DNA of 64,000 bases from contig JACZJB010000104.1 in assembly GCA_014860805.1 (NCBI GenBank), forward strand, positions 13,075-77,074, in the 5' to 3' direction. Position 1 is the first letter of the stretch, and each line of letters starts with the position of its first letter. The DNA is from Anaerolineales bacterium (GTDB lineage Bacteria > Chloroflexota > Anaerolineae > Anaerolineales > Villigracilaceae). The notes under the pieces were generated by a model that saw only the letters and a program-made list of their open reading frames with translations, had not been told where the DNA came from and ran no database searches. Of this stretch, positions 3,839 to 40,193 are shown piece after piece. The position numbers were made by a program, and so were the translations under genes.

Positions 3839-4036
3839 GGTATCTCTCCTTGAGTGGTTGTATGAAATGGTGAAACTATATTCGGGCCGAAACCCGAGAC
3901 CCTTCCCCCTACGGGGACGATGCGCCCGCTCAGGGTGACATATAAAGGATATATAATTGATTTTACTCCCTAACTTGTGCGCTTGCAAGAAATTAGACAA
4001 TTATTATACAAATATCATATAAATCAAGGACAGTGC

Positions 4037-4960
4037 ATGAACGAGACCCGCGCCCGCCTCTTTTTACCGTTCGCCATTCTGATTGCCATCCTCGCGGTCT
4101 CCACCGCGAGCATTTTTATCCGCTATGCGCAAAGCGACGGAGCGCCGTCCCTTGTAATAGCAGCCTTGAGATTGACTTTCGCCTCCTTGATATTGACTCC
4201 GCTTGCACTGACGAAGCACCGCGACGAGATCAAGCGCTTCACACAGACCGAGATGCTGCTCGGCGCTGGCTCGGGCATTTTCCTGGCTGTTCATTTCGCC
4301 ACGTGGATCACTTCGCTTGAATACACCAGCGTAGCCAGTTCGGTGGTGTTCGTCGCCACAGGTCCGCTGTGGGTGGCGCTGCTTTCGCCGATGCTGTTGA
4401 AGGAGCACCTGGCGCGGATGGCGGTGATCGGGTTGGCGCTGTCCATCGTCGGCGGGGCAATTATCGGCTTGTCTGATGCGTGCACGTGGACGGGCGGCTT
4501 CACTTGCCCTGCCCTGGGTGACATCCTGCAGGGACGCGCGGCGTGGGGCAACTTCCTCGCGCTGGCTGGCGCCTGGGCTGTGACGGGGTATCTGATCATC
4601 GGCAGGAAGCTGCGAGCTGGCATGTCGCTGGTGCCGTACATCTTTTTGGTGTACGGCATGGCTTCGATTGCGCTGATCGTGATCATGTTCCTTTCGGGAA
4701 ATACGCCGTTCGGATACGCGCCGAAAACCTACGGGTGGATATTGCTGCTGGCTGTTCTGCCGCAACTGGTGGGGCACTCCACGTATAACTGGGCGTTGAA
4801 GTATCTGCCCGCCGCGCTGGTAGCTGTGACGACGCTTGGCGAGCCGATCGGGTCGGCGGTGCTGGCGTTCTTCCTGTTGAATGAAACACCTGCGGTCACC
4901 ACCATCATTGGCGGGGTGTTGATCCTGGCGGGGATCTATCTGGCTTCGAGAAGTAAATAG
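4037..4960 (+). CDS. EamA/DMT-family transporter (10 TM)
   Basis: Two EamA-like halves, hydrophobic throughout. ATG at 4037 follows AAGGA. Confidence 0.8.
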   Translation: MNETRARLFLPFAILIAILAVSTASIFIRYAQSDGAPSLVIAALRLTFASLILTPLALTKHRDEIKRFTQTEMLLGAGSGIFLAVHFATWITSLEYTSVASSVVFVATGPLWVALLSPMLLKEHLARMAVIGLALSIVGGAIIGLSDACTWTGGFTCPALGDILQGRAAWGNFLALAGAWAVTGYLIIGRKLRAGMSLVPYIFLVYGMASIALIVIMFLSGNTPFGYAPKTYGWILLLAVLPQLVGHSTYNWALKYLPAALVAVTTLGEPIGSAVLAFFLLNETPAVTTIIGGVLILAGIYLASRSK

Positions 4961-23550: not shown

Positions 23551-24060
23551 ATGGAATTCAAAATGCTGTACAAGGGACTCACTCAAAGCACGGAAATAAT
23601 TCGGGCTTTGCTGACAGGCATCAGCGCGGAAGAGGCGAAGATGAAGCCATCCAAAGGGACATGGTCCGTTCTCGAAGTGACCTGTCACCTGTACGATGAA
23701 GAACGCGAAGATTTTCGCGAGCATTTGGATTTCATCTTGCATCGCCAAAACGAAGAATGGCATCCCATCGCTCCACAGGCATGGGTGAAGTTGCGAAAGT
23801 ACAACGAACAGGATTTTGGAAGAATGAAAGCGAAGTTCTTTCATGAGCGGATAAAGTCGCTGACGTGGCTGAAAGAATTGAAAAACGCAGATTGGAATAT
23901 TATCTACAAGTCAAAGTTCGGCTCAATGCGCGCTGGTGATATGCTCGCCTCGTGGGCGGCGCATGATAATCTGCATATCCGCCAATTGGTGGAGCTGCAA
24001 AGGTGGCACATTGAACGGAGCAGCAAGCCATTTAAAATCCGTTACGCGGGTGAGTGGTAA
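23551..24060 (+). CDS. DinB-family protein
   Basis: WSVLEVTCHLYDEE ... AHDNLHIRQL. The histidine pattern fits DinB_2. Confidence 0.7.
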   Translation: MEFKMLYKGLTQSTEIIRALLTGISAEEAKMKPSKGTWSVLEVTCHLYDEEREDFREHLDFILHRQNEEWHPIAPQAWVKLRKYNEQDFGRMKAKFFHERIKSLTWLKELKNADWNIIYKSKFGSMRAGDMLASWAAHDNLHIRQLVELQRWHIERSSKPFKIRYAGEW

Positions 24061-24062
24061 AT

Positions 24063-24098
24063 AAAAAGAGCAATTGCTGACAGCAATTGCTCTTTTTA
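24063..24098. terminator. bidirectional terminator (DinB / Rieske)
   Basis: AGAGCAATTGC-TGACA-GCAATTGCTCT flanked by A and T runs. Confidence 0.75.
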
Positions 24099-24112
24099 TT
24101 TCAATGCCCGAT

Positions 24113-24472
24113 CTATTCCTTAGGCACCCCTACAAAAATAATCCCGTCACGCACCTGCACAGGATAGGCAGGGATATCCACTACCGCGGGCATTTGCACC
24201 GCCTGTCCGCTGCGGATGTCAAACTCTGCGCCGTGTCGGGGGCAAACAACATTGAAACCTTCGATCATCCCATCTCCCAGCGGACCGTCATCATGCGTGC
24301 AAACATCACCAATTGCATAGAGTTGTCCGGCGATGTTGAAGATAACAATCGGCTGATCGCCAAGGTCAACGAATAATCGCTCCCCGCTCGGCAATTCGGA
24401 TGCAGGGGCGATTTCTGCAAATTCAACTTTGGATTCATCGTAGTTTGTGTAATTGAACATAAGGATTCCCAT
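24113..24472 (-). CDS. Rieske [2Fe-2S] ferredoxin, last gene of the SUF cluster
   Basis: CTHDDGPL ... CPRHGAEF. Confidence 0.85.
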   Translation of the reverse strand: MGILMFNYTNYDESKVEFAEIAPASELPSGERLFVDLGDQPIVIFNIAGQLYAIGDVCTHDDGPLGDGMIEGFNVVCPRHGAEFDIRSGQAVQMPAVVDIPAYPVQVRDGIIFVGVPKE

Positions 24473-24492
24473 CCAAGATCACGACCCGGGCG

Positions 24493-24888
24493 TTATTCCA
24501 CCAGCGAGTCGCTAGCCTCTCCCAACCCATAGACACCTGCCTTCAAAACTTTCAAAGAAAGCAAAGCACATTTCAGGCGCACAGGACCCAGGTCAATTCC
24601 GAGCAATTCAAGGACAGAGTCCTTGTTAAGTTTCTTCACTTCTTCGAGCGGCTTGCCAATGATGGATTCCATCAATAAATCTGCGGAAGCCTGAGAGATG
24701 GCGCAGCCGTGACCGTCAAACAGGGCTTCGGTCACAACGCCGCCGCTGTCTACACGCAGGTCAATTTGGATGTGGTCGCCGCACAACGGGTTATTGTCCG
24801 CAAAGGAAATATCGTGCGGATCAAGTTTTCCGCGATAAGATGGGTTTTTATAATGCTCAATGATAACTTCGCGATAGAGATCGTCCAT
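24493..24888 (-). CDS. sufU: SufU/IscU-like Fe-S scaffold / sulfur acceptor
   Basis: YKNPSYRG, NPLCGD, GHGCAIS, LKCALL. Confidence 0.85.
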   Translation of the reverse strand: MDDLYREVIIEHYKNPSYRGKLDPHDISFADNNPLCGDHIQIDLRVDSGGVVTEALFDGHGCAISQASADLLMESIIGKPLEEVKKLNKDSVLELLGIDLGPVRLKCALLSLKVLKAGVYGLGEASDSLVE

Positions 24889-24890
24889 AA

Positions 24891-26117
24891 TTATCCAAAC
24901 ATTTCTTTAACTTTATAGATGCCGCTCACCAGAAGGTCAACTTCTTCTTTTGTATTATACAAATAGAAAGAGGCGCGGCTCGTGGCAGGGATGCCGAATT
25001 TTTCATGCAGAGGCTGCGCGCAGTGATGACCAGCCCGCACCGCAATTCCATCCTGGTCGAGAATTTGCGCCACATCATGCGGATGCACACCTTCAAGAGT
25101 GAACGCAGCTACTCCGCCTTTTTTATCAGCAGACGGACCAAACAATTTCACGCCGGGGATTTCTTCCAAACGATCCAACGCGTACTCGGTGACTTCATGC
25201 TCGTGCGCAGCGATTCTTTCCATGCCGACAGCTGAAAGGTAATCTATGGCAGCACCAAACCCGACAGCTTCGGCGATGGCAGGAGTTCCTGCTTCAAATT
25301 TATGCGGCAATGTGTTCGGACGGAAAGAGCGTAGCTTTACTTCCTTGATCATATCGCCGCCGCCTAAAAACGGGGGCATGGATTCGAGCAAGGCTGTCTT
25401 TCCGTATAATGCGCCAATGCCGGTTGGTCCGCACATTTTGTGAGCAGAGAAGGCATAGAAGTCCGCGTCAAGAGTTTGCACATCCACCTTGAGATGCGGC
25501 ACGGACTGTGCCCCATCCACAAGGACAATTGCGCCAACTTCATGTCCCATGCGTATGATCTCAGCAGCAGGGTTGATCGTGCCGAGGACGTTGGACATGT
25601 GCGTAAACGAGATCAGTTTCGGGCGGCGGTCAAGAAGCGTTTTATACGTTTCCAGATCGAGCAAGCCATCCTCCGTCACAGGGATGAATTCCAGCTCGAT
25701 CCCCCGTTCCGCCTGCAGCATATGCCAGGGAACGAGGTTGCTGTGATGCTCCATCTCCGTCAAAATGACGAGGTCGCCCGTTTTCAAGTTTGCGCGCGCC
25801 CAGGAATAAGCAATGAGATTTATCGACTCGGTCGTATTCCGCGTATAAATAACTTCACGCGAAGATGATGCATTGATGAACTTGGCGATCTTTTCGCGAG
25901 CACTTTCATACATGGAAGTGGCTTCTTCAGCAAGGGTATGCACGCCGCGATGGATGTTCGCATTTGAACGGCGATAATAATCGTTCATCGCCTCAATGAC
26001 CTGCACGGGCTTTTGCGAAGTAGCCGTGGAATCCAAATAGGTCACGCGCACGCCGGGGCGTGTTTCACGCTCAAGGATCGGAAAGTCTTTGCGGATTTTT
26101 TCTATATCGAGAGTCAT
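24891..26117 (-). CDS. sufS: cysteine desulfurase, SufS type
   Basis: MTLDIEKIRKDFPIL, SAHKMCGPTGIG, RAGHHCAQP. ATG at 26117 chosen. Confidence 0.92.
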   Translation of the reverse strand: MTLDIEKIRKDFPILERETRPGVRVTYLDSTATSQKPVQVIEAMNDYYRRSNANIHRGVHTLAEEATSMYESAREKIAKFINASSSREVIYTRNTTESINLIAYSWARANLKTGDLVILTEMEHHSNLVPWHMLQAERGIELEFIPVTEDGLLDLETYKTLLDRRPKLISFTHMSNVLGTINPAAEIIRMGHEVGAIVLVDGAQSVPHLKVDVQTLDADFYAFSAHKMCGPTGIGALYGKTALLESMPPFLGGGDMIKEVKLRSFRPNTLPHKFEAGTPAIAEAVGFGAAIDYLSAVGMERIAAHEHEVTEYALDRLEEIPGVKLFGPSADKKGGVAAFTLEGVHPHDVAQILDQDGIAVRAGHHCAQPLHEKFGIPATSRASFYLYNTKEEVDLLVSGIYKVKEMFG

Positions 26118-26184
26118 GGAGAAAATACAACTGACGACAAACCGATGCGGTTTATTTACGTATCTGCCCGCCGCCAATCACTTT

Positions 26185-26826
26185 CTAATAGTCGGGGATA
26201 AAATCTTTTTTCATGGCAGGCTTCTTACCAGCCACAGGGCGGATATGCTCAGAAGTCAGCGGATACCAAAGGATGCGGTCAGGCACCATCCAGCCGTCCG
26301 TGAGATATACATTCGAGCGGAATTGCACTGCCACCATTTTATTATCCACTTGAACGACAATGCCCTTGATCCAGCCGCGGATTCGTTCGCGGCTTTTTTC
26401 ATGGTCGCAAAACACCTCCACAGAATCACCCACTTCAAAGGCGTGCTCCAGCCCGGGAGCCTTCATGAAGGCAAATTGATTCACGCGTGTGGAACGCTTA
26501 ATGGGCTTGTGGCGATCCACCAAAGGAATCAAGGTCCGCTTCACGATGGAAGGCGCAGGTTTTGCAACGGCCTGCGTTTTTGCCGCAGCATTCAGCATGG
26601 CAGCCGCAACATTTACCTGCGGCTTCACCTTCGGCTCACTTACAGGGCTGGATTTTACGCCCGGCTTTACAACTTGTTTTTTCAATTTCTTCGCCTTTAC
26701 TTTTGGCTTGTTCGTTGTCTTCGCAGCAGACTTTGCCTTTACCGCCGCCTTGGACTTAAGTGTTACCTTTGCCTTTACATTAGCTTTGGACTTTTGCTTG
26801 GGTTTCGCTTTTGACTTGACTACCAT
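26185..26826 (-). CDS. histone-H1-like Lys/Ala-rich N-terminal tail fused to a Tudor/Agenet/SH3-like C-terminal domain
   Basis: KSKAKPKQKSKANVKAKVTLKSKAAVKAKSAAK..., then GDSVEVFCD...GWIKGIVVQVDNKMVAVQF. ATG at 26826 follows AGGA. Confidence 0.65.
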   Translation of the reverse strand: MVVKSKAKPKQKSKANVKAKVTLKSKAAVKAKSAAKTTNKPKVKAKKLKKQVVKPGVKSSPVSEPKVKPQVNVAAAMLNAAAKTQAVAKPAPSIVKRTLIPLVDRHKPIKRSTRVNQFAFMKAPGLEHAFEVGDSVEVFCDHEKSRERIRGWIKGIVVQVDNKMVAVQFRSNVYLTDGWMVPDRILWYPLTSEHIRPVAGKKPAMKKDFIPDY

Positions 26827-26930
26827 GACACACATCCTGTCTTGAAAATTGAGACGCCCTCCGCCTCATAACTTAACTGTTGGCTGCTCCCACCAAATAG
26901 CCTGACCTAAATCTGAAAATTTATACCACT

Positions 26931-26967
26931 GAAAAACCTGACATGCAGTTTCCCTGCACGTCAGGTT
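26931..26967 (-). terminator. intrinsic terminator/attenuator after sufD, inside the SUF cluster
   Basis: On the minus strand, AACCTGACGTGCAG-GGAAA-CTGCATGTCAGGTT followed by TTTTT. Confidence 0.6.
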
Positions 26968-26975
26968 CAAAACAT

Positions 26976-28322
26976 CTATCCAGATAACTTATCCTGAATG
27001 GCTTGCTGGAATCTTTCACGCACGCCTTCAAACGGGATGCGCTGCATGATCGGGTCGAAGAAACCCTCGACAACCAACTGCTCCGCCTCACGCTGCGGGA
27101 TGCCGCGTGACTTTAAGTAGAAGAGCGGCTCGGCTTCCAGTTTACCAACCGTTGCACCATGTGTACAGCGGACATCGTCTGCGAGAATTTCCAAGCCCGG
27201 GATCGAATCTGCGCGAGCCTGATCATCAAGGACGAGGTTGCGATTTGCCTGATACCCATCCGTCTTTTGTGCGCCAGGCGCCACATAGATCATGCCCTGC
27301 CAGACAGAACGGCTTTTGCCCTTCAAAGCGCCTTTGAACAACAAGTCGCTGGTGGTGTGCGGAGCAAGGTGATTCTGCTGAGTATCGTGATCAAGGTGCT
27401 GGGTTCCGTCTGTAAAATAGAATCCGGACATTCGTCCCACCGAGCCTTCGCCAGCGAGATCAAGATCCGAGAAATTCTTAGTCAATCGGGAACCGACCGC
27501 ACCGAAAATCCAGTCGAGATTGCCGCCACGCTCGACACGAGCGCGTTCGTGGGAGAAGTTCCACACGTGACGTCCCCAGGACTGCAATTCGACAAAACGC
27601 AGGTTGGCATCCTTGCCAACATAGATTTCAACCACGCCGGCGTGCATGGCATGTCCCATTTCATCAGGGGAAGCCGCCTCGTGAACATACGTTACGGAAG
27701 CGCCGTCTTCCACATAAACGATGAGATGAGAGAAATGAGCAAGGTCGGTGCCGGGTCCCCAAAGCACAGAGTGAAGCGGATATTCCACTTGCACATTCTT
27801 GGGAACATAAAGCAACACGCCATTTTGAGCCAGAGCCGAAGCCAGTGCTGCGAACTTGCCATCGTCCGGCTTCACGATCTGGCCGATCAACTTTGCGAGC
27901 AGGTCAGCGTGATTTTTTTCAGCAGTGCGGAAGTCTGTGAAGACCACGCCTTTCTTCGCAAGCTCATCATCCAATTGGATTTGGGAGCCGCCGGGCAGTA
28001 ACGTGATTTGTCCGCCGTGCTGTTCGCCAGTCAATGGCTTGAGCAAATGCTCCGGGACAACTGGCAGATCTTCAAACGCGCCTGCTTTAGGGAGTTTGAA
28101 ATCATCAGCAGGCAATAAACGTAAATCCGTGCGGCGCCAGGCTTCATCTGTGGTGACGGGGAGGGAAAACTTTTTAAAGGAGCCCCAGGCTGAGGCGCGG
28201 AAAGAAGCGAGATCGTTGCTCGACGCAGGGATGTCCGCCTGCGTGAAGGTAAAGTCCTTTGCGGCTGATCCGCGTCGAGTTCTACTTACTGATACTTTTG
28301 GTTTTTCCTGCATGTTAGCCAA
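26976..28322 (-). CDS. sufD: Fe-S cluster assembly protein SufD
   Basis: SufB/D beta-helix C-terminal blocks ([18 protein letters not shown]). Overlaps the end of sufB by 8 nt. Confidence 0.88.
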
Positions 28323-29736
28323 TCGATCCTTCCATTTGAAGTTGGATCAAGCGGTTCATTTCAACTGCGTATTCCATGGGTAATTCCTTGACAAGCGGTT
28401 CGATAAAACCGGAGACCACCATGGTGGTAGCTTCCTCTTCACTGAGACCGCGGGACATGAGATAGAAAAGTTGTTCCTCACCCACTTTGCTGACAGAAGC
28501 TTCATGACCGATGGTCACATCATCTTCATCAATTTCAATGGTGGGATAAGTATCAGAGCGGGATTTGGGGTCGAGCAAAAGCGCGTCACAAACCACGTTG
28601 GATTTGACGCCTTTCGAACCTTTATAGACCTTCACCATACCGCGATAGGAGGCGCGACCGCCGCCCTTGCTGATGGACTTGGAAACGATCTTGCTGGTGG
28701 TGTTGGGTGCGAAGTGCATCATCTTTGAACCGGCGTCTTGAGTTTGCCCGGGACCTGCAAATGCCATGGAAAGCATTTCGCCGTGTGCGCCGGGCTCCAT
28801 CAAATAGCAGGACGGGTATTTCATGGTGAGCTTGGAGCCGAGGTTGGCATCCACCCATTCGTGAGAGGCGTTCGCAAAAACCTTGGCGCGCTGTGTCACG
28901 AGATTGAACACATTGGTTGACCAGTTTTGAATGGTCGAGTAGCGGGAGCGTGCACCCTTCTTGACGACGATCTCGATCACGCCGCTATGGAAGGAATTGG
29001 TGGTGTACTGCGGAGCGGTACACCCTTCCACATAATGCACGGATGCGCCTTCATCTACAATGATAAGGGTGCGCTCGAATTGACCGACGTTGGCAGTGTT
29101 CAAACGGAAATACGCCTGAAGAGGCAGATCCACAGTGACGCCTTTGGGGATGTAAACGAAAGAACCACCAGACCAAACCGCAGAATTGAGAGCGGCAAAT
29201 TTGTTATCCTCGGGCGGGATCACAGTGCCAAAATATTCTTTGAACAAGTCGGGGTATTGTTTCAAACCATCTTCAATGGAAAGGAAGATGACGCCCTGCT
29301 TTTCAAGATGTTCCAAAATGGAATGATAGACCATCTCAGATTCGTACTGCGCGCCCACGCCTGCCAAGAACTTCTGCTCGGCTTCAGGGATGCCCAATTT
29401 GTCGAAAGTATTCTTGATGTCGCTTGGGACATCATTCCAATTCTTCTCGCTTTTTTCGGTCGGCTTGACGTAGTAATAAATTTCGTCAAAGTTGATCTCG
29501 TCAAGAGACGGGCCCCAATTTGGCATGGGACGGGCAATGTAATGCTCGTAGGCTTTGAGGCGGAACTCGAGCATCCACTGCGGCTCATTCTTCATGCGGG
29601 AAATATTTTCAACAACCTCGCGGGTTAATCCACGCTCAGATTTGAAGACATAGTTATCGTCGCGGTCGTGAAAACCATATTTATAATCGCCAATCTCTTC
29701 GAGAATAGATTCGTCAGTTTTAATTTCTTCAGTCAT
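28315..29736 (-). CDS. sufB: Fe-S cluster assembly protein SufB
   Basis: [40 protein letters not shown]. Confidence 0.93.
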
Positions 29737-29808
29737 GGGTTATCCTATCGATAAGGGATTGCTTCATCGCCTTGCTGCCAGCGATTCGCAATGACATTAA
29801 GCAACTTC

Positions 29809-30588
29809 CTAGCTTTCTTCGGCTACAGCGTCGTACTTCTCGCGCACCCAGTCGTAGCCCTGGTCTTCGAGATGCAAGGCAAGGTCGGCTCCGCCCGATT
29901 CAACAATGCGGCCGTCCAACATGATGTGGACGAAGTTCGGTTTGATGTAGTTCAAGAGGCGTTGATAATGCGTAATGACGAGCACGCCCAGTTCGGGTCC
30001 AGAAAGAGCGTTGACGCCTTCTGCGACGATGCGCAGCGCATCAATATCCAAGCCTGAATCTGTTTCATCCAAAATGGCAATCTCTGGCTTGAGGGTCGCC
30101 ATCTGCAAAATCTCGGCGCGCTTCTTTTCACCACCGGAAAAACCGTCGTTGAGGTAGCGTCCCGCAAAATTGTGATCCATCTTAAGCGTGTCCATCTTTC
30201 CTTTTAACATCTTGCGGAATTCAGGAATGGGCATGCCTTTATCTTCGGGGTTTTCGGCGCGGCGGCGGGAGTTGATGGCAGTCCGCAAAAAGTTTGCCAC
30301 AGTGACACCTGGGATGGCTACTGGATACTGGAAAGCAAGAAAAATACCGGCACGTGAACGTTCGTCTGGCTCAAGATCGAGTACGTTCTTTCCTTTAAAG
30401 ATAATTTCGCCTTCTGTGACAGTGTAGTTGGGGTGACCCATTAATGTGTACGCAAGTGTGGATTTACCCGTGCCATTCGGCCCCATGATCGCGTGGATCT
30501 CACCTTGATTGATCGTGAGCGAAAGCCCCTTTAGAATTTCCTTGTCTTCAATGCTAACGTGCAGATTCTTGATCTCAAGTTGCGACAT
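29809..30588 (-). CDS. sufC: Fe-S cluster assembly ATPase SufC
   Basis: GPNGTGKST Walker A, FSGGEKKR signature, [10 protein letters not shown] Walker B. Confidence 0.95.
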
Positions 30589-30665
30589 TCTTTTATAGCT
30601 CCTAAGAAATACCGCCTCCGCGGTATGAATTAAGCCATTGCTGGCGTTTTTACTAATTTTGAAGC

Positions 30666-30694
30666 ATTATAGCAGGGCTGGGTAGATTTGTCAA
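30666..30694 (-). promoter_or_regulatory. consensus sigma-70-type promoter of the suf operon (TTGACA-17 bp-TATAAT)
   Basis: On the minus strand, TTGACA (30694-30689), a 17-bp spacer, then TATAAT (30671-30666). This lies about 75 nt upstream of the sufC ATG. Confidence 0.7.
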
Positions 30695-30720
30695 TATTTA
30701 TGATATTTTTCTAGTATATT
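30693..30720. promoter_or_regulatory. 28-bp AT-rich element, copy 1 (AATATTTATGATATTTTTCTAGTATATT), abutting the suf -35
   Basis: 27/28 identical to 36519-36546. Confidence 0.6.
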
Positions 30721-30817
30721 CAAACGAAGAGTTTAAGACATTATTCCGTTGACAAAGCGCAAAAAACAGCGGAAAATTGAAGGGTGGCACAAGTTCACCC
30801 TGATAAGGAGGGTTATC

Positions 30818-33250
30818 ATGAAAAAGTCAACCCGCATCGCACTAACCATCATCTTTTTACTTTCACTACTTGGAATCACCCCATTCCAGCATGTTCAAGC
30901 AGCTACAGTATGGGTTGTTACCAATACGAACGATAACGGAACAGGATCGCTCAGGCAGGCAGCTATGGATGCCTCCAATGGCGATACGATTAAATTTCAT
31001 TCTTCCCTTGCAGGCAAGACCATCCATTTTGCCTCTGAACTTCAAATTGACAAATCTATCACGATTGATGGTTCGAACCTGAATCCACGCATTACGCTCA
31101 GCGGTGATACCGATAATAATGGAACTAGCGATGTCCAGATCATGACCATTACAACCAACGGCAATGTACGAATCCTGGGTTTGGATTTTACCAATGGGAA
31201 AAAAGGCATTTCTTTCACAGGTGGTATTGCAAATTTTGGCCTGCTTGAGATCAGCGCCTGCAAATTCTCAGGTAATACAGGGGATATGGGTGGAGCGCTA
31301 CTGAACAGGGGCAACTTGACCATTCAGGATTGTGAATTCATTGACAATTATGCACATGATGGCGGGGCAATCTTTAACGACATAGGATCCACTGCAACGA
31401 TCAGCGATACCCTGTTTGTTCAAAATACAGCCGACACTATGTATGGCGGTGGAGGCGCGATCGGCAATATTGGAAATCTTCTGGTTACATATAGTGAGTT
31501 CAGTGAGAACATAGCTGCAAATGGAGGGGCGGTCGTCAACGCACGCGATGGCAACACAACGATCTCACAGACCACCTTTACAGCTAACGCAGCAACAACT
31601 GAAAGTGGCGGCGCTATTTTCAATATAAACGGTACAATGACAATCTCCGCATCATTCAACGGAAATACGGCCACAAAAAATGGAGGCGCAATTTTCATCG
31701 AAAATGGAACTGTGAATGTCGAAAATAGCTACTTCTCAGAAAACACCGCAAGTTTGGACGGCGGAGGGGCGATCTTCAACAATCTCAATTCAACTGCGAC
31801 TATCTTTGACAGTGCTTTCAACAAAAACAACGCAAGCGGCACATTTGGTGGCGGAGGCGCAATCGCAAATGTTGGCAGCCTAACTGTCAGTAGAAGTGAC
31901 TTTACACACAATACATCAGTCGATGGTGGAGGTGCAATTTTGGCAGGAGGAGACACTACAATATACAATACCAACTTTTCATCAAATACAACGGGGCTTG
32001 GAGGTGGCGGAGCAATATTAAGTTGGATCAATATCACAATAGAGAACTCGTCATTCAGTTCAAACATAGCCACTGGGTACGGGGCATCTGGCGGAGCGAT
32101 TAACCATCCTTCAGATGGTAACATAACCATATCACAAAGCACATTTTCCAATAACACCGCTAATGGCGGTGGAGCAATAAGTCTGGGAAGGCAAAATTAT
32201 CCATATCCCGCAACATCACCAACACTCTCAATTTCAAACACTGTTATATCAAACAATCACGCAGACTTTGGAGGCGGGTTACTCATACTTGCAGGGACTA
32301 CAACTGTAAACAATACTACCATCTCAGAAAATTCATCCGAAGATGTTGGAGGCATTGTAAATTCCGCATTTGGAAACCTCACAATAATCAATAGTACTGT
32401 TGATAACAATTCCGTCATTAACACAAACAGTCCTGCTGGCATCCTAACCGAAGGCCCAATAAGCATAATCAATAGCACAATTGCAAACAATTTGGGGTCA
32501 GCCATCCAATCGTACGGAGAAACCAACATTATTAACAGTACCATTGCGGGAAATATTGCTTACGGTATCCGCCACTACTCTGGCGTCTTAGTCTTGAAAA
32601 ATTCTATTCTTGCAAACAACTGGTGGGACTGCACACTGGAAATAGGCGGTTCGATTGGAGAATCTCAGAACAATGTAATTGAAGAAAATTTTTGTGGGAT
32701 AGCTAATTTGGATAGTGATCCGAAACTAGGTCCATTGGCAAACAATGGAGGCGCCACACAAACCATGGCCTTGCTCCGCGGCTCTCCAGCGATTGACGCG
32801 GGTGATGATTCAGTTTGTCCCACCACCGACCAGCGCGGGATTACCCGTCCAAAAGGCAGCCATTGTGATATTGGTGCATATGAATTTGAAAACAAACCTG
32901 ACTTGATTATTACAAACGTAACCATAAATCCGGTTACTCCGGGTGTCAATCAAACTTTCGAAGTAAATATCACTGTCAAGAATCAAGGAGGCGAAACAGG
33001 CTCTAATATTGTATACAGGGATGTGTATATTGACAGGGATCCTTCCACCCTGATTAATCCCACCACGGGCTGTCCCCCTCCCGGCGATTTCTTCAGGGCT
33101 GATTACTTTACAAACCTTCCTGAGGGATGGGTTGATACAAAAACTATTACCATTACCGGGGGACTCCCTAAAGGTAGTTACCAGCTTTGGGTTTATGTAG
33201 ATTCACGCTGCCTGATTGACGAAGGTGGCGGAAGCAACAATACTCCGTAG
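30818..33250 (+). CDS. large secreted right-handed beta-helix protein (Pmp-type GGAI repeats, choice-of-anchor-Q-like region, C-terminal CARDB-like domain)
   Basis: Signal peptide [18 protein letters not shown]. More than 10 GGAI/GGAL repeats. [21 protein letters not shown]. Start ATG 30818 follows AAGGAGGG. Confidence 0.8.
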
Positions 33251-33271
33251 CGGTCAAGAATCGCTCTTTAT

Positions 33272-33307
33272 ACCTCCTTCTCCCACCCGGAGAAGGAGGT
33301 TTTTTTT
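33272..33307 (+). terminator. intrinsic terminator
   Basis: ACCTCCTTCTCC-CACCC-GGAGAAGGAGGT followed by TTTTTTT. Confidence 0.85.
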
Positions 33308-33429
33308 AAGCAATAGAATCACAATCAATTAAAGCCAGCCAAGCAAGCATATCAAGTTCATTCCACAGTGTGGTGCAATAGAAATTTGGCCCTACAATCG
33401 GAACATTCATCATGGTTATGGAGTTGCTT

Positions 33430-36400
33430 ATGAAAACATTCCTCCCTCGCTCAACATTCTTACTTTTATTTCTGGCTATACTTTTATCAGCCGCCCAACC
33501 TCATTCCCCCGCCCGCGCCCAAAGTGACAAAATCACTTTTGCCGTGATCGGAGATTACGGCCTTGCGGGACAAAACGAGGCAGACGTGGCAAATCTCGTA
33601 AAGAGTTGGAACCCTGACTTCATCGTCACAACCGGGGATAATAACTACAACGACGGAGCTGCCTGGTCCATCGACCAGAATATCGGCCAGTATTATCAAG
33701 AATTTATTTATCCATACACAGGGAAATATGGAGCGGGCTCTCCCACAAGAAGGTTTTTTCCATCGCTGGGGAATCATGATTACGGGGGCGACAACGACGC
33801 CAATGCATATTTCAAATATTTTGGCTTTTATAAACAGGAAAGCTTTTACGATTTCGTTCAGGGACCTGTCCACTTTTTTATCGTGAACAGCAATAAGGAA
33901 GAACCGGACGGGTACAAGTCAAATTCCACACAGGCAAAATGGTTAAAGAAAGTCTTGACTGCGTCCACGTCTCCGTTCAATATAGTGGTATTTCACCACC
34001 CTCCGTATTCTTCAGGCAGGCATGGCTCCAACGAATACATGCGCTGGCCATTCAAGGAATGGGGCGCAGACGCAGTGATTGCCGGGCATGATCATATTTA
34101 CGAAAGATTGCTTGTAGACGAATTGCCTTATTTCGTAAACGGGATCGGCGGCGCAGAGTTATATCGTTTTGAAACCATTCTGCCGCAAAGCCAGGTACGC
34201 TACAACCAGGATTTTGGGGCAATGCGCGTGGAAGCATCCAGCACGTATATGAAATTCCACGCAATCACGCGGACTGGATTGCTGATCGACGAATATGTCA
34301 TTGGTCAGAACTACCCTACCGTCACAAGCATTACGCCAGTCAGTCAATCCCCAACAAATGCGAACAGCCTCAACTTCCAGGTCACTTTTTCGGAGGCAGT
34401 GTCAGGCGTGGATGCTGCCGACTTTGCACTCACTACCAATCTCAGCGGGGCGGCCATTGAAACCATCAGCGGGACTGGAAATACATATCTTGTTTCAGTA
34501 AACACAGGAACCGGTGATGGAACCCTGCGCCTCGACCTAACGGACGACGACTCAGTCACGAACAGCATGAACAACCCTCTTGGCGGACCGGGCATTGGCA
34601 ACGGAAACTTTTCGAACGGTCAAGCATACACAGTGGACAAAACCGCACCCAGCGTTGCATCAATTGTTCGCGCTGGCGGAAGCCCGACAAACGCGGGCAG
34701 TGTGGATTTTTCCATCGTTTTTTCCGAGGCAGTCAACGGCGTAGACCTTTCTGATTTTGCACTCACAACCAGCGCAGGCGCCTCCTTCATTAATATGAAC
34801 GGGTCTGGCAACTCCTATGTTGTTTCCATCGCCACAGGCACAGGCGACGATACAATAAAACTAGATTTTATCGACAACGACAGCGTCACTGACCTGGCAG
34901 GTAACGCCACAACTGCAGGCTTTTCCAGCGGGGAAATTTATTCAATAGATCGCAGCGTGCCATTCGTTACATCCATTGTCCGCGCAAACCCAAACCAGGC
35001 AAACTCTTCCAATGTGGATTTCACTGTCAGTTTTTCAGAAGCAGTTAACGGCGTAGATAGAAGCGATTTCTTCCTTTCCACATTGAATGGAGCAACGATC
35101 AATACTGTTTCTGGCAGCGGCAGCGTTTATAACATTTCAGTGTCCACTCAGCCCGGTAACGACACGATCCGCCTTGACCTGATCGACAACGACAGCATTT
35201 TTGACAACGCGGGAAACATGCTTGGCAGCCCAGGGAGTGGAAACGGAAATTTCACCAACGGTGAAACTGTCACGTTCAGTCAGTATGCGCCGATAGTGAC
35301 TTCGATTACGCGAGCCAGTTACAACCCCACCAGCGCCGCAAGCGTGGATTTTATTGTCACATTTTCTGAAAGCGTGACCGGCGTGGATGCATCCGATTTT
35401 ATTTTGACAGGAATTCCCAATACATCGATATTGAATGTCAACAATTCAAACCCCTTCTATGTTGTTACAGTTAGCACAGGCGCAGCGGAAGGCGAATTAA
35501 AGCTTGACCTCGTGGATGATGACAGCATTCAAAACGCTTCAGGAGTCCAATTAGGTGGAGAAGGAATTGGAAACGCAAATTACACAAGCGGCGAAAAATA
35601 TTCTATCGACAGAACTCCCCCGCGGGTCACTTCGATCGTGCGCGCAAGCAACAACCCCACCATCAATTCCAGCGTGGATTTCATTGTCACGTTTTCAGAA
35701 CCCGTTGCAGGTGTGGACGCATCCGATTTTCGTTCCAACACAACAAACTTAAACTCAGTCGTTACAAATTTTCAAAGTGCAAATCCGTTCTTCGTGGTGA
35801 CGTTAAACGTCGGGGCAGGCTCCGGCACACTTCGTCTTGACCTGAGCGATAACGGCAGCATTACCGACCTTGCCGGGAACAAACTGATCGATGGAAATTT
35901 TACGAACGGAGAATCATTTACCGTCGCAAAAATAACTGTCAATTTTCCTGCGCCGAATATTTTGAGCCGTACCACACTGACAAACAACCCAAGACCGAAC
36001 TTTTCCTGGGGCACTGTCCGCAATGCTCAAGCGTATGAGATCTTCATTGCGCAAGATGCCAGCTTCACGCAAATTGTGTGGGTTCAAACCATCAATCAGA
36101 CAAATTTTACGCCAGTCTCTCCGCTGGCAGACGGAACATACTTCATGCAGGTGCGGGCGTACAACGCCGCTGGATCACCCGGAAAATTCAGCAAACGATA
36201 TATCATCACAATAGACACCACGCCTCCCCCTGCGCCGACACTTGTCAGCCCGCCCAATAACACAAACGCCCCGACACAACCCACATTGCAATGGAACCCG
36301 GTAAACGGCACAGTGCAGTACCAAATTGAGTTGGACAACAATTCGGATTTCTCAAGCCCCGAGTTTAGAGATACAACAAGCAAAACCTCCATTCGGACGA

Positions 36401-36501
36401 AAACTCTTGCCAAAGGCTCAACCTACTACTGGCGGGTTCGCGCAAAGGATAAAGTTGGAAATTGGAGTAGTTGGTCTGTATTTTCAGTAAACATACGATA
36501 A
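33430..36501 (+). CDS. secreted calcineurin-like metallophosphoesterase with five tandem Ig-like repeats of about 105 aa and two FN3-like domains
   Basis: FAVIGDYG, GDNNY, GNHDY, VVFHHPPYSS, GHDHIYE. The repeats share the pattern TSIVRA..NPT..SVDF.V.FSE.V.GVD.SDF. Alternative start at 33412. Confidence 0.8.
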   Translation: MKTFLPRSTFLLLFLAILLSAAQPHSPARAQSDKITFAVIGDYGLAGQNEADVANLVKSWNPDFIVTTGDNNYNDGAAWSIDQNIGQYYQEFIYPYTGKYGAGSPTRRFFPSLGNHDYGGDNDANAYFKYFGFYKQESFYDFVQGPVHFFIVNSNKEEPDGYKSNSTQAKWLKKVLTASTSPFNIVVFHHPPYSSGRHGSNEYMRWPFKEWGADAVIAGHDHIYERLLVDELPYFVNGIGGAELYRFETILPQSQVRYNQDFGAMRVEASSTYMKFHAITRTGLLIDEYVIGQNYPTVTSITPVSQSPTNANSLNFQVTFSEAVSGVDAADFALTTNLSGAAIETISGTGNTYLVSVNTGTGDGTLRLDLTDDDSVTNSMNNPLGGPGIGNGNFSNGQAYTVDKTAPSVASIVRAGGSPTNAGSVDFSIVFSEAVNGVDLSDFALTTSAGASFINMNGSGNSYVVSIATGTGDDTIKLDFIDNDSVTDLAGNATTAGFSSGEIYSIDRSVPFVTSIVRANPNQANSSNVDFTVSFSEAVNGVDRSDFFLSTLNGATINTVSGSGSVYNISVSTQPGNDTIRLDLIDNDSIFDNAGNMLGSPGSGNGNFTNGETVTFSQYAPIVTSITRASYNPTSAASVDFIVTFSESVTGVDASDFILTGIPNTSILNVNNSNPFYVVTVSTGAAEGELKLDLVDDDSIQNASGVQLGGEGIGNANYTSGEKYSIDRTPPRVTSIVRASNNPTINSSVDFIVTFSEPVAGVDASDFRSNTTNLNSVVTNFQSANPFFVVTLNVGAGSGTLRLDLSDNGSITDLAGNKLIDGNFTNGESFTVAKITVNFPAPNILSRTTLTNNPRPNFSWGTVRNAQAYEIFIAQDASFTQIVWVQTINQTNFTPVSPLADGTYFMQVRAYNAAGSPGKFSKRYIITIDTTPPPAPTLVSPPNNTNAPTQPTLQWNPVNGTVQYQIELDNNSDFSSPEFRDTTSKTSIRTKTLAKGSTYYWRVRAKDKVGNWSSWSVFSVNIR

Positions 36502-36518
36502 CTGGTCAAACCAGACAA

Positions 36519-36546
36519 AATATTTATGATATTTATCTAGTATATT
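36519..36546. promoter_or_regulatory. 28-bp AT-rich element, copy 2 (AATATTTATGATATTTATCTAGTATATT), abutting the sufR -35
   Basis: 27/28 identical to 30693-30720, in the same orientation. Confidence 0.6.
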
Positions 36547-36573
36547 GACAGGAACATACAGGGCAGTTATACT
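36545..36573 (+). promoter_or_regulatory. sigma-70-type promoter of sufR (TTGACA-17 bp-TATACT), predicting a leaderless or near-leaderless mRNA
   Basis: TTGACA at 36545-36550 and TATACT at 36568-36573. The ATG is at 36581. Confidence 0.6.
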
Positions 36574-36583
36574 GCCCTGTATG
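36555..36583. promoter_or_regulatory. perfect 13-bp inverted repeat (CATACAGGGCAGT-TAT-ACTGCCCTGTATG) spanning the -10 box and start codon of sufR
   Basis: Read directly. Candidate autoregulatory operator. Confidence 0.55.
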
Positions 36584-37219
36584 AAATCTACGCGAGACAA
36601 AATTTTACAGACTTTACTTCGAAAACCACGTTCCACCATCAACGATCTTGCCGAAGCGGTTGGAATCAACCCCATCTCTGTGCGCCATCACCTAACCAAC
36701 CTTCAAATGGAGGGATTGGTTGAAGGACAGGAAGAGCGTCATGGAGTGGGACGCCCCCGCCTTGTGTATGTGCTTACCGACGAAGGCATGGAACACTTCC
36801 CCACTCGTTACATGAAATTGACTACACGACTACTTTCCCAAATGAAAGAGACCATGCCCGGGCCGGTGGTGGCAAAATTATTCAATCAAATTGCTGAAGA
36901 TCTCGCCAGCGAATATACAGAAGACATGAAAAACCTGGGTATGGAAGAACGCCTAGACTTCGTCAAAGAAATGCTGGCTCAGGAAGGTTTCACAGTGGAA
37001 TGGGAGAAAAAGGATGGAGGTCAATACCAGATCCACGAAATCTCCTGCCCGTATTATCAAATTGGCATTGCACATCCTGAAGTCTGCACTGTGGATCAGA
37101 CGTTGATCTCAAAAATGCTTGCGTTACCGGCAAACAAAGTCCAGTGTATTTTGGACGGCGGCGCACACTGCACGTATGTTGTCCAGTCTGCGGAAGTAAA
37201 AACGGCAAAACACTCATAA
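36581..37219 (+). CDS. sufR: SufR-like transcriptional regulator (winged HTH plus C-terminal 4-Cys Fe-S sensing motif)
   Basis: RDKILQTLLRKPRSTINDLAEAVGINPISVRHHLTNL. C-terminal C-x12-C-x19-C-x7-C. Linked to the suf genes. Confidence 0.75.
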   Translation: MKSTRDKILQTLLRKPRSTINDLAEAVGINPISVRHHLTNLQMEGLVEGQEERHGVGRPRLVYVLTDEGMEHFPTRYMKLTTRLLSQMKETMPGPVVAKLFNQIAEDLASEYTEDMKNLGMEERLDFVKEMLAQEGFTVEWEKKDGGQYQIHEISCPYYQIGIAHPEVCTVDQTLISKMLALPANKVQCILDGGAHCTYVVQSAEVKTAKHS

Positions 37220-37234
37220 TTTAGCAGAGGAACC

Positions 37235-37579
37235 ATGAGCGAAGAAATTAAAGAAATCCAGTGGACCATCCACACCACCCACCCGGAATTGGTAAAGGAA
37301 GCCCGCGCCAAACTGTCAGAGGTGATCGACCCTGAAATTGGAATGAGCATCATCCAGTTGGGTCTGATCCGCGATATCGAAGTTGAAAATAACATCGCCA
37401 GCCTGAAGATGATCCTCACAACACCCTTCTGTCCCTATGGCCCGGCCATGATCGAAATGACCAAAGCCAAGGCGATCGAAGGCCTCAACATGCCCGTCAC
37501 GATCAACATGGGTATGGAAATGTGGGACTTTTCGATGATGGAAGATCCATCCGCGTTGGACTGGGGAATGTACGCGTAA
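37235..37579 (+). CDS. sufT: DUF59/MIP18-family Fe-S assembly protein (SufT-like)
   Basis: VIDPEIGMSIIQLGLI ... TTPFCP. Confidence 0.8.
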   Translation: MSEEIKEIQWTIHTTHPELVKEARAKLSEVIDPEIGMSIIQLGLIRDIEVENNIASLKMILTTPFCPYGPAMIEMTKAKAIEGLNMPVTINMGMEMWDFSMMEDPSALDWGMYA

Positions 37580-37594
37580 CGGTTTATCAATCAT

Positions 37595-37630
37595 AAAAAA
37601 GACGCCGACTTTTGGTCGGCGTCTTTTTTA
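37595..37630. terminator. bidirectional terminator
   Basis: AAAAAAGACGCCGAC-TTTTG-GTCGGCGTCTTTTTT. Confidence 0.85.
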
Positions 37631-38215
37631 TTGCCCCTTTTTCCAATGCATTACATGCGGCTGCTCGCCTTCCGCAAAGCCTGAAATAATGATCAAAGCA
37701 TTTGTTACATTCGTGCTTTGGTTGCGCCAGCGATGACTCAATTTTGAAGCGAATAACAGGCTATCCCCTGCTTCAAGATGAAAAACTTCCTTTTCAACGA
37801 AATAATCCAACTGACCGCGCAGACAAAATACGAACTCATGTCCGCTGTGCACCATGCCATGTTGACCGCAGGAAGCGCCGCTCTCCAGCGTCAGCATGAA
37901 CGGCTCCACCCTGCCGACAAACTGCTCCCCGCCTAATGCTTCAAATACCCCGCGTGTAAATGACATGCGTGTCCGTTCGTCCGACTTCAAGAATACAACC
38001 TGCTTCTTTTCGGTCTCTCTATCGAAAAAAGCTGTGATCGAAACCCCCAACGCATCAGCCAATTTGTAAAGTGTGCTTACCGAGGGCGAGGTCTTCCCGC
38101 GTTCGATCATCGAAAGAGCGTTGGCAGACAACCCGCTTTTTGCACCGAGTGCGCGCATGGAAATCCCCCTTGATTCTCGCAGTTCGCGCAAGCGAGAGGC
38201 CACATCCACCGACAT
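37628..38215 (-). CDS. XRE-family HTH regulator with a C-terminal cupin domain
   Basis: LRELRESRGISMRALGAKSGLSANALSMIERGKTSPSVSTLYKLADAL, then a cupin beta-barrel. Start at MSVDVA is likely. Confidence 0.8.
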   Translation of the reverse strand: MSVDVASRLRELRESRGISMRALGAKSGLSANALSMIERGKTSPSVSTLYKLADALGVSITAFFDRETEKKQVVFLKSDERTRMSFTRGVFEALGGEQFVGRVEPFMLTLESGASCGQHGMVHSGHEFVFCLRGQLDYFVEKEVFHLEAGDSLLFASKLSHRWRNQSTNVTNALIIISGFAEGEQPHVMHWKKGQ

Positions 38216-38297
38216 TGCTTCTCTCTGAAACGATCCCATACTACCTCCAAACTAAAACACTGTCTCAAATAAAACTTGCCGGATTATACCAATTTTT

Positions 38298-38343
38298 ATA
38301 TGACATTAAACAAAACTTAATATGACACAATTCACTATTGTGT
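38298..38343. promoter_or_regulatory. candidate operator region: direct ATATGACA repeats (38298, 38320) and the palindrome ACACAAT-N5-ATTGTGT (38325-38343)
   Basis: Read directly. Lies in the divergent region between the XRE-cupin and ArsR genes. Confidence 0.35.
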
Positions 38344-38406
38344 AAAGTATCACAAATGTATGATAGGGCTATAAATATTCGTTTATTCGCATATAAGAAG
38401 GTAAAT

Positions 38407-38754
38407 ATGGTCACACCTGTCCTAAAACAAGAAATCACTCAACTCGAAGCCAATTTCTGTGCGGCGCTTTCAGACCCAAACCGCCTTCTCATCTTGTACG
38501 CTTTGGATGAAGGTCCACGCAACGTAACCGATCTCGCAAATGAACTCGGGCTGAACCAGCCAACCACGTCGCGGCATCTCAAAATCCTGCGCGAGCGCGG
38601 GCTTGTGGATACCGTCCGCACAGGCACAACCATCACCTACCATCTTTCAGATCCAAGGCTTATTCAGGCGCTTGATCTTTTGCGCAGCGCCATGCGTGAC
38701 AGACTCGCACATCAAGCAAACTTGATCAATGAAGTTTCACAGGAGAATGTATGA
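38407..38754 (+). CDS. ArsR/SmtB-family transcriptional regulator
   Basis: FCAALSDPNRLLILYAL...NVTDLANELGLNQPTTSRHLKILRERGLV. ATGA overlap with the next gene. Confidence 0.85.
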   Translation: MVTPVLKQEITQLEANFCAALSDPNRLLILYALDEGPRNVTDLANELGLNQPTTSRHLKILRERGLVDTVRTGTTITYHLSDPRLIQALDLLRSAMRDRLAHQANLINEVSQENV

Positions 38755-40193
38755 AGAACCGCTTCCCTTCCTGGACCCTGGGGCTGATCGGCATCTTGTT
38801 GCTGATCCTCGTCCCTGTCCTGTACTACTTACCTCGCGCCCCAAAAGCCAATGACCCTGCGGCGTATCTCCCCACCAAAGTTGTGCACGTGGATCACAAA
38901 GACATCGTCCAGGGCGAATTTAAAACTGGACAGGATGTAACCCGCGCCTGTCTCGAATGTCACGAAGACGCTGCCACAGAATTGATGAAAACAACCCACT
39001 GGACCTGGGAATCGAAAGCCTTTGATGTTCCCTGGCGCGATGACAACGTGACCATTGGCAAGATCAACCAGATCAACAATTTCTGCATCGGCTCACAAGG
39101 CAACGAAAACAAGTGTATGTCCTGTCACGCTGGTTATGGCTGGGAAGAAGGCAAAGAAGCCGCTCTTGCCAGCGAAGAAAATGTGGATTGTCTCGCCTGT
39201 CACGCGGATACTGGCATGTACGGCAAAGGCACTTTCGGCAACCCCGCGGATGGCGTTGACCTGCTGGCTGCCGCACAAAGTGTGCGCGCTCCAACCCGCG
39301 AAAACTGCGGTAAATGTCACTTCGATGGCGGCGGTGGAAACGGCGTCAAACACGGCGACCTCGACGAAAGCCTGTACTTCCCGGACCAGTCCCTGGATAT
39401 TCACATGGGCGGCGAGCTCAACATGCAATGCACCGACTGTCACGTCTCCACAGACCACCAAATTTTGGGTCGCATGCTTGCAGACAATTACACCATTGAC
39501 CCAAATGAACAAGTCTCCTGCGAGCAGTGCCATGTAAACCAAAAGCATGAAGATGAACGGATCAACACCCATCTTTCCGCAGTAGCCTGCCAAACCTGCC
39601 ACATTCCCGCGATAGCGCTGGAAGACCCAACCAAAACCACTTGGGACTGGTCACAAGCGGGTCAGGATGGACGCGAAGACGATCACTTCACCTACCTCAA
39701 GATCAAAGGTGAATTCACCTACGAACAAAATTTCAAACCCACTTATCTCTGGTTCAACGGCAACAACGAATATCGCTACATCCTCGGCGACCCGCTGGGT
39801 AAAAGCGGTATCACCTACATCAACAAGCCTGCGGGCAGCATCAAAGACCTCAGCGCAAAGATATTCCCCTTCAAAATTCACGTTGCCAAGCAACCCTATG
39901 ACGTGAAAAACAATTACCTGCTTCAACCCATCACATCCGGCGAAGGCGGTTTCTGGACAACCTTTGATTGGAACAGCGCCTTCGAACTTGCCGCACCGGT
40001 CACGGGCTTGGAATACAGCGGAGAATATGGTTTCACAGAAACACATATGTACTGGCCGACTACGCACATGGTTCAATCTGCCGACAAAGCCTTGCAATGT
40101 AACTCCTGTCATTCCGCCACCGGCGAACCCAGCATTATGGACTGGGAAGCCCTCGGCTATTCCGGCGACCCAATTGAATGGGGCGGAAGGTAA
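38751..40193 (+). CDS. octahaem c-type cytochrome, tetrathionate-reductase (Otr) family-like, N-terminally membrane anchored
   Basis: Eight CxxCH motifs (CLECH, CMSCH, CLACH, CGKCH, CTDCH, CEQCH, CQTCH, CNSCH). THWTWES block. N-terminal TM helix. Confidence 0.75.
   Translation: MKNRFPSWTLGLIGILLLILVPVLYYLPRAPKANDPAAYLPTKVVHVDHKDIVQGEFKTGQDVTRACLECHEDAATELMKTTHWTWESKAFDVPWRDDNVTIGKINQINNFCIGSQGNENKCMSCHAGYGWEEGKEAALASEENVDCLACHADTGMYGKGTFGNPADGVDLLAAAQSVRAPTRENCGKCHFDGGGGNGVKHGDLDESLYFPDQSLDIHMGGELNMQCTDCHVSTDHQILGRMLADNYTIDPNEQVSCEQCHVNQKHEDERINTHLSAVACQTCHIPAIALEDPTKTTWDWSQAGQDGREDDHFTYLKIKGEFTYEQNFKPTYLWFNGNNEYRYILGDPLGKSGITYINKPAGSIKDLSAKIFPFKIHVAKQPYDVKNNYLLQPITSGEGGFWTTFDWNSAFELAAPVTGLEYSGEYGFTETHMYWPTTHMVQSADKALQCNSCHSATGEPSIMDWEALGYSGDPIEWGGR

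Follow-up and report, generated by a model that had tools for sequence, protein, structure and literature searches.

In cyanobacteria, SufR represses both the sufBCDS operon and its own gene from the intergenic region between these two divergent units, and the box recognized in Synechocystis (sll0088; Wang 2004 and Shen 2007, as described in the excerpted text of PMC7058544 and PMC4755962) is CAAC-N6-GTTG. The SufR protein of Mycobacterium tuberculosis (Rv1460) footprints an inverted repeat, ACACT-N5-TGTGA, at the suf promoter (excerpted text of PMC8371249). The available excerpts of Furuta, Abe & Kobayashi 2010 (PMC2853133) further describe insertion with long target duplication, which is characterized by repeats of more than 30 bp, restriction-modification cargo and recent intraspecific polymorphisms. 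Here we analyze the sufR/sufCBD control region in a 64,000-nt stretch of DNA (the window, to which unlabelled coordinates refer) from an Anaerolineales bacterium (Villigracilaceae; contig JACZJB010000104.1), in which a 28-bp direct repeat brackets a 5.8-kb insert between the sufC and sufR promoters. SUF is the essential route of iron-sulfur (Fe-S) cluster assembly in these bacteria, and we know of nothing on its regulation in the Chloroflexota, which are mostly uncultured. As in the cyanobacterial sufR/sufBCDS region, the compact relatives of this locus have a suf operon and, pointing away from it, the gene of a winged helix-turn-helix (wHTH) regulator with C-terminal cysteines; a palindrome in the intergenic region that the two share is proposed to govern transcription both ways, including that of the regulator's own gene, in line with the excerpted cyanobacterial accounts. 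The explanation that best accounts for the data, and which we consider probable overall, is that the 28-mer is a dyad operator-type element of the suf control region that was duplicated when this region was split early in the genus, that both copies were kept, that some lineages later collapsed back to one copy, and that SufR is the likely binder.

The 28-mer, AATATTTATGATATTT[T/A]TCTAGTATATT, occurs at 30693..30720 on the sufC side (with T at position 17, T17) and at 36519..36546 on the sufR side (A17), both times on the plus strand and with 27 of 28 positions identical. The two copies extend without gaps to 36 nt at 89% identity, with 5 of the 8 added positions matching. A prior sequence-only reading of the window had described this repeat and placed its left copy next to the -35 hexamer of a perfect sufC promoter and its right copy next to that of a sufR promoter. 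All of this was confirmed: a consensus scan locates the sufC promoter, TTGACA-17-TGcTATAAT, at 30666..30694 on the minus strand (12/12, plus a TG extended -10, with the hexamers kept in relatives) and the sufR promoter, TTGACA-17-TATACT, at 36545..36573 on the plus strand (11/12), and each copy of the 28-mer overlaps the -35 hexamer of its promoter by 2 nt. Pattern searches at up to 3 mismatches recover these two copies in the window, where 0.00 are expected from 100 shuffles, and no more in the whole assembly (4,232,736 bases in 274 contigs). A check for further copies, which that reading had proposed, hence rules out a genome-wide repeat. Likewise, a position weight matrix (PWM) built from 36 distinct copies and scanned over the whole genome gives only three sites of 35 bits or more, namely the suf sites at 50 and 49 bits and a third site at 35 bits, the next best scoring 20.

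The element is A/T at 25 of its 28 positions and occupies approximately -34 to -61 of both promoters. Its conserved block is dyad-symmetric, with the form AATAT-n4-GATA-nn-TATC-n4-ATATT; in the compact form of the region seen in relatives the symmetry reaches into both -35 hexamers (TGTCAATAT...ATATTGACA), and the dyad centre falls about 47 bp upstream of each predicted start. The sufR promoter itself is strongly constrained, its TTGACA and TATACT hexamers being invariant in 79 of 79 related loci, while the distance from the -10 to the sufR ATG (36568..36583) is exactly 7 nt in 63 of these and 6 or 8-11 nt in the others. Given that the ATG follows the -10 by only 7 nt, the sufR mRNA is probably leaderless; its start is also without a ribosome-binding site. 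The transcription starts given here are predicted from the promoter scan, a search of listed sequencing runs having returned no RNA set for 29000-37600.

Comparison with relatives shows what the region looks like without the insert. We compared related sufR loci, 80 in all and with at most 1.5 kb upstream of each, and searched 95 genomes of the genus, which comprises Anaerolineales of the Ca. Villigracilis-like type from sludge and groundwater, with a slightly degenerate pattern allowing up to 3 mismatches. In this genome sufR and the suf operon are 5.8 kb apart and hence not adjacent. In 16 of the 80 related loci, sufC is only 143-169 nt off and a single 28-mer is present exactly as TGTCAA-[24 nt]-TTGACA. 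Both the expectation that relatives would contain an empty site with one 28-mer and the suggestion that joining the two copies would rebuild a compact divergent sufR/suf region, which had been raised from the window alone, are thus borne out by an arrangement that exists in nature, with the single element placed precisely between TGTCAA and TTGACA. Elsewhere among the 80 loci, two copies are spaced by 60-61 bp (three loci), 227-294 bp (three) or about 1.2 kb (two); a metallophosphoesterase homologue lies upstream of sufR in 34, a homologue of the first gene of the present insert in one, and 21 have other content or nothing recognizable within 1.5 kb. A copy begins 61-65 nt upstream of the sufR ATG in 79 of the 80 loci and is inverted in one. 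In this inverted case (L035 11968-11995, genome G003) the flanking promoter is normal, and the element evidently either works in both orientations or has flipped between its own inverted ends.

In the loci examined from eight further families of the order, sufR lies next to sufC and is transcribed away from it. Both hexamers are present in seven of these loci, separated by 24-27 nt with a variable A/T-rich core in between, which includes GATA in six (the exception being L132); the eighth has the sufC-proximal half only. Because these families keep it, the compact single-copy state is ancestral. Within the genus, a match was found in 91 of the 95 genomes, with one copy in 35, two in 51 and three in 5; the four genomes without a match are 53-86% complete, and a reversed-pattern control gave no match in any of the 95. 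In this genome search, copies on the same contig and in the same orientation are spaced by anything from 227 bp to 21.5 kb, the range extending down to 60 bp when the 80 loci are included, and three genomes have copies 50-289 kb apart on opposite strands. These distributions bear on the two readings that had been set against each other at the outset, a shared cis-element or a duplication created by insertion of the 5.8-kb segment. Both are true, and they are not exclusive alternatives: relatives have a single copy, and both copies are conserved where there are two. Similarly, a duplication at the point where the region was split stands, whereas its attribution to an event of this genome does not, as 56 of the 95 genus genomes carry at least two copies.

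The conservation pattern points to selection acting on each copy separately. In 29 split genomes, the sufC-side copies are invariant at 24 of 28 positions and are followed in most by a C, and the information content drops to approximately zero from the third base past the element. On the sufR side, similarity between species sets in precisely with the element's first base and extends through TTGACA-17-TATACT, and the sequence just inside the insert cannot be aligned between species. The single difference between the copies is itself conserved: T17 is found in the sufC-side copies of 29 of 29 split genomes and of 8 of 8 two-copy loci, A17 in the sufR-side copies of 62 of 63 non-single loci, and T17 in 16 of 16 single copies. 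The sole A17 exception (L051/L070, genome G051) has T17 in both copies and may be a case of gene conversion between the repeats. We conclude from these alignments that both copies are kept by selection. As dozens of species with differing cargo share the T17/A17 signature, one ancient duplication appears far more likely than many independent ones. Given that the conserved block is dyad-symmetric and its flanks are randomized, the 28 bp represent what selection has preserved and need not equal the length of the original duplication; the flanks of the copies are saturated with change and set no bound on that length.

The same observations bear on a simpler account, in which the copies are a neutral target duplication left by the 5.8-kb insertion and the 28-mer has no function. 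Direct repeats around an insert that lacks mobility genes, aligning with one copy in empty-site relatives, are indeed the signature reported in the excerpted part of PMC2853133. Yet the same paralogous copies flank differing cargos in dozens of species while the adjacent non-coding DNA is randomized, and a single copy is kept in other families of the order. Moreover, a third, diverged copy is conserved at an unrelated locus, on which ground the 28-mer is more than an insertion scar. We regard the neutral account as extremely improbable.

This third site (C12:12477-12504 of the same genome, minus strand; L048, L049) lies 38 nt before the start codon of a gene for an M50/CBS protease, 3' of the terminator of an aminotransferase gene and of a CCTGATAG direct repeat; a search over 33 nt with up to 3 mismatches finds it in 30 of the 95 genomes. 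The protease gene has its own ribosome-binding site and a full promoter cannot fit downstream of the third site; judging from this spacing, the site must overlap a promoter or transcript start and not lie upstream of a -35. A fourth match, of 19.5 bits, at C87:853-880 closely follows a TATAAT box and precedes feoB and two genes for DtxR-like regulators. As a search at up to 3 mismatches finds it in just 4 of the 95 genomes and its score is near chance, we rejected it as a member of the regulon and list it as a lead only.

The geometry of the third site also helps in judging a further possibility, namely that the 28-mer is a bidirectional A/T-rich UP element serving the alpha subunits of RNA polymerase at both divergent promoters, duplicated so that each keeps one. 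UP elements are A/T-rich tracts at about -40 to -60 that stimulate transcription through the C-terminal domain of the alpha subunit, a consensus used here as background. The position and composition of the element at both promoters fit this description, both promoters are near-consensus, and what the outgroup families keep between their hexamers is an A/T-rich core of 24-27 nt with variable sequence. However, the near-invariance of G10, C19 and G22, which is evident in the sufC-side copies, is not needed for mere A/T-richness; nor does the idea sit easily with the dyad symmetry, with an inverted copy being tolerated in one genome (L035), or with a third copy 38 nt before a start codon that leaves no room for a promoter. 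We regard an UP element as improbable, and we have high confidence that the 28-mer functions as a cis-element of the kind suggested by its conservation, most plausibly as an operator-type site for a dimeric or tetrameric regulator.

The history of the region was approached with a maximum-likelihood tree of the approximately 1-kb sufR-sufT segment of the locus itself, comprising 79 genus loci and three outgroups. Single-copy genomes are nested inside split clades, and at the base of the genus the lineages have the split or the tandem form. At least three changes of state are forced by well-supported branches, with a minimum of nine overall, and the best tree in which all single-copy rows form one group is rejected by an approximately unbiased (AU) test (p 0.0002, log-likelihood difference 322). 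Most economically, the region would have been split once, at an early stage, with recombination between the 28-bp repeats later producing several precise collapses, and we judge a single old duplication with later collapses to be likely on this comparative evidence. Short-spacer genomes were considered as survivors of a pre-insertion state and rejected in that role: the 199-bp spacer of G078 is more likely a deletion scar, its best match being the C-terminus of the common cargo protein (21 amino acids, E 0.04 in a database of three spacers, and therefore weak). If this weak match is taken at face value, imprecise deletions would also occur.

What has passed through the split region is highly varied. 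The metallophosphoesterase is the commonest cargo in the genus, with homologues of 47-75% identity between the copies in many relatives, and it diverges much faster than the flanks, its identity being 74-75% where that of SufR is 97%, and 47-66% elsewhere. Two separately placed genus lineages (L131 and L108) have a UbiA-like membrane protein as cargo instead, and further cargos include GSDH, GH44, DUF1565, MBG/YDG, SLH and FG-GAP proteins. The cargo genes of relatives are mostly for secreted proteins and are mostly, not always, oriented like sufR; additional genes occur on both sides of the metallophosphoesterase gene, adjoining either copy. Such turnover raises the prospect that cassettes enter and exit by recombination at the 28-mer, which would be either an att-like core or a hotspot and would owe its conservation to this role. 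Besides the varied cargo and the new genes beside either copy, the recurrence of precise one-copy collapses, the single inverted copy and the three genomes with copies 50-289 kb apart on opposite strands could all be read in this way. Against it, no integrase or transposase family was detected, either with Pfam and NCBIfam in the two proteins encoded by the present insert or in a scan of 15 selected cargo open reading frames of relatives, the inner junctions are not conserved, and the single copy is conserved in cargo-free genomes and in other families that have no cassettes; the collapses require nothing beyond homologous recombination between 28-bp repeats. We accordingly hold a dedicated recombination site to be very improbable, and return to the reading of the 28-mer as a duplicated operator-type element.

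In the scheme that we propose, of which protein binding, its repressive effect, the identity of the regulator and the relative timing of duplication and insertion are predicted steps, one protein bound between the back-to-back -35 hexamers of the ancestral compact region would have served both the sufC and the sufR promoter. Early in the genus, the control region would have been split and the element duplicated, the duplicated unit possibly being the whole sufR promoter of about 62 bp with cargo arriving afterwards; alternatively, the insertion of a gene could have been accompanied by a long target duplication. Each promoter would then have retained its own copy, since each needs one, while the surroundings decayed. 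The gap would have become a tolerated landing place in which genes for secreted proteins were gained, lost and swapped, and in several lineages recombination between the direct repeats would have removed the cargo, leaving a single copy again. The regulator would most likely be the adjacent Fe-S-cluster repressor SufR, acting on the suf operon and on its own gene as in cyanobacteria. A repressor appears more likely than an activator, as the sufC promoter is a near-perfect consensus and more likely needs restraint; repression would also fit because the third site lies over a promoter or start. By analogy with cyanobacteria, the adjacent SufR-like protein is our candidate for the protein that binds the 28-mer, though we advance this identification tentatively and with somewhat less than even confidence.

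Several observations weigh against parts of this scheme. The SufR-like protein aligns over its full length with TIGR02702 at 88 bits, which is under the cut-off of 178.8. The position of the element, 5' of the two -35 boxes, is typical of UP elements and activators and not of classical repressors. Neither the CAAC-N6-GTTG box nor ACACT-N5-TGTGA is found in either control region, the former having two matches in the window, at 17808 and 34809, which is at chance level. In addition to SufR, the genome encodes two Fur-family and two Rrf2-family regulators and a conserved XRE-cupin protein beside sufT, all of which are possible binders. Among three outgroups without a SufR match, two have no motif before sufC and one (G038) has a partly similar A/T-rich stretch, a comparison that is weak given its size and confounded in that there is no divergent promoter without sufR. 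In the tree, 32 of the 79 branches lack resolution, and the groups were defined with the tree already in view. Finally, all 16 single copies have T17, though random crossover within the repeat should give A17 about as often. This could be due to selection for T17 at the sufC promoter, a requirement that would fit the invariance of T17 there, or else some of the single-copy lineages were never split.

In a further alternative, a different regulator, of Fur/PerR, DtxR, Rrf2 or XRE-cupin type, would act at the 28-mer, with SufR acting instead at a second palindrome over the sufR -10. In its favour, Fur- and Rrf2-family genes are present in the genome, the weak fourth match precedes DtxR-like genes and feoB, the gene downstream of the third site encodes a protease without an obvious connection to Fe-S clusters, and the second palindrome, of 9-bp arms (ACAGGGCAG TTATA CTGCCCTGT, 36558..36580 on the plus strand, read from the sequence), shows partial covariation. 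Its outer arm positions change together in relatives, as in ...TGGGCAG/CTGCCCA..., and among 62 distinct sequences 56% of the cells pair, versus 52% in shuffles and 33-43% in slid controls. On the other hand, this palindrome is absent or weak in many relatives and has no evident counterpart at the sufC promoter; the fourth site is confined to the few genomes noted above at a near-chance score, and the upstream region of the XRE-cupin gene contains no PWM match of 12 bits or more. By eye, the element resembles a Fur-box consensus at 11 of 19 positions. Overall, another regulator at the 28-mer strikes us as unlikely, although it is the strongest competitor of SufR in this role. The -10 palindrome may be a second candidate operator or, given that no terminator follows the last cargo gene, a hairpin in transcripts that read through from the cargo.

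A more specific version of the history starts from the three tandem forms with copies 60-61 bp apart, in which the length of the spacer approximates that of the sufR core promoter. By eye, these spacers look like decayed versions of TTGACA-17-TATACT (e.g. TTAACA-17-TTCACT), the comparison being one of three related sequences to which no statistic was attached. This resemblance suggests that the original duplication may have comprised the whole sufR promoter unit of about 62 bp, with cargo landing later. Were this so, the tandem duplication of a leaderless sufR promoter unit would have made a neutral landing pad out of the 24-bp gap between two promoters of essential genes, which until then could not be disturbed, giving rise to a hypervariable surface-protein island whose cargo is gained, exchanged through the suf flanks and excised through the 28-bp repeats as a reversible switch, some of it perhaps under the same Fe-S-responsive regulator. 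Such a landing pad would be insulated by two outward-facing and separately controlled promoters. We offer this duplication-first version as a speculation that is more probably wrong in some of its parts than right in all.

The insert of this genome contains two genes only. The first (30818..33250, plus strand) encodes a secreted beta-helix (PMP repeats), choice-of-anchor Q and CARDB protein according to its domain matches, and is provided with a promoter-like site at 30749..30777 (10/12) and a strong terminator at 33272..33300. The second (33412..36501, plus strand), likewise assigned from domain matches, encodes a secreted metallophosphoesterase with Ig-like repeats; no terminator-like site was detected in a scan between its stop codon and sufR. 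Both proteins have signal-peptide-like N-termini. Five tandem repeats of about 330 bp with 60-77% identity at 34321..35730 correspond to the Ig-like domain array of the second protein. The claim that only two AT-richer genes for giant secreted proteins lie between the copies holds as to the number of genes; their A/T-richness is modest, the GC content being 0.41-0.52 inside the insert versus 0.47-0.55 in the suf genes.

To the left of the insert, the sufC-sufB-sufD-orf216-sufS operon occupies 24891..30588 on the minus strand (TIGR01978, two SUFBD_core and Aminotran_5 matches), with the sufC product matching TIGR01978 at 366 bits. Between sufD and sufS, orf216 (26185..26835) encodes a protein of 216 amino acids with a sub-threshold Agenet match and no other family match; its C-terminal half is 75-86% identical in relatives. 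The 5' leader of sufC (30634..30645, minus-strand RNA) contains a small hairpin, GCCA-N4-TGGC, with a T/A run after it, which is seen throughout the genus, with a variable, often GNRA-like loop and compensatory stem changes in at least one relative. A scan of 24000-40000 against Rfam, this hairpin included, found no family at the gathering score. To the right, the sufR-like gene (36581..37219, plus strand; domain/profile match) encodes a wHTH protein with four C-terminal cysteines (C156, C169, C189 and C196), and is followed by a gene for a SufT-like Fe-S assembly protein (37235..37579, plus strand; domain/profile match). A SufR paralogue of about 30% identity is encoded elsewhere in this genome (C48, approximately 3836-4170) as a divergent pair with a gene that, from the N-terminal sequence of its product, we take to be IscX-like. 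The promoter of this latter gene, TTGAC-17-TGCTATAAT, is close to the sufC promoter, and an A/T-rich core lies between the divergent pair.

The comparison across the genus defines a 28-bp candidate operator base by base and yields a candidate regulon of three sites. It amounts to a natural deletion-and-duplication experiment across dozens of species, which suggests that each promoter needs its own copy, and it documents a compact bidirectional region that was pulled apart without losing its presumed regulation, the gap becoming a hotspot for the turnover of surface-protein genes. With respect to known systems, the locus departs from the cyanobacterial sufR/sufBCDS region in having a 28-bp A/T-rich dyad upstream of both -35s and no CAAC-N6-GTTG, in the gene order sufCBD-x-S, and in being split with one copy of the element per promoter; here, moreover, the SufR-like protein scores below the cut-off of TIGR02702 (SufR_cyano) and the function of the element is a prediction from sequence. 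In tetR/tetA-type regions, one dyad site between two divergent sigma-70 promoters controls both, the operators overlapping core elements, whereas the present element lies between the -35 boxes and has since been separated into two independent copies. As in M. tuberculosis, a SufR-family protein is associated with an inverted repeat at a suf promoter, with binding known there and predicted here; as far as the excerpted account of Rv1460 goes, sufR is there the first gene of the operon and not divergent, and both sequence and geometry differ. Insertion with long target duplication, as outlined in the excerpts dealing with it, is matched in that the insert is below 20 kb (here 5.8 kb) and free of mobility genes, and in that the repeats align with one copy at the empty site. 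It differs in that the recognizable repeat here measures 28 bp, short of its 30-bp criterion, the cargo consists of surface proteins, and the event predates the radiation of the genus, with the repeat being a conserved regulatory element under selection. The locus is thus a new example of known principles, namely a shared divergent operator and an insertion or duplication with flanking repeats, and not a new kind of system.

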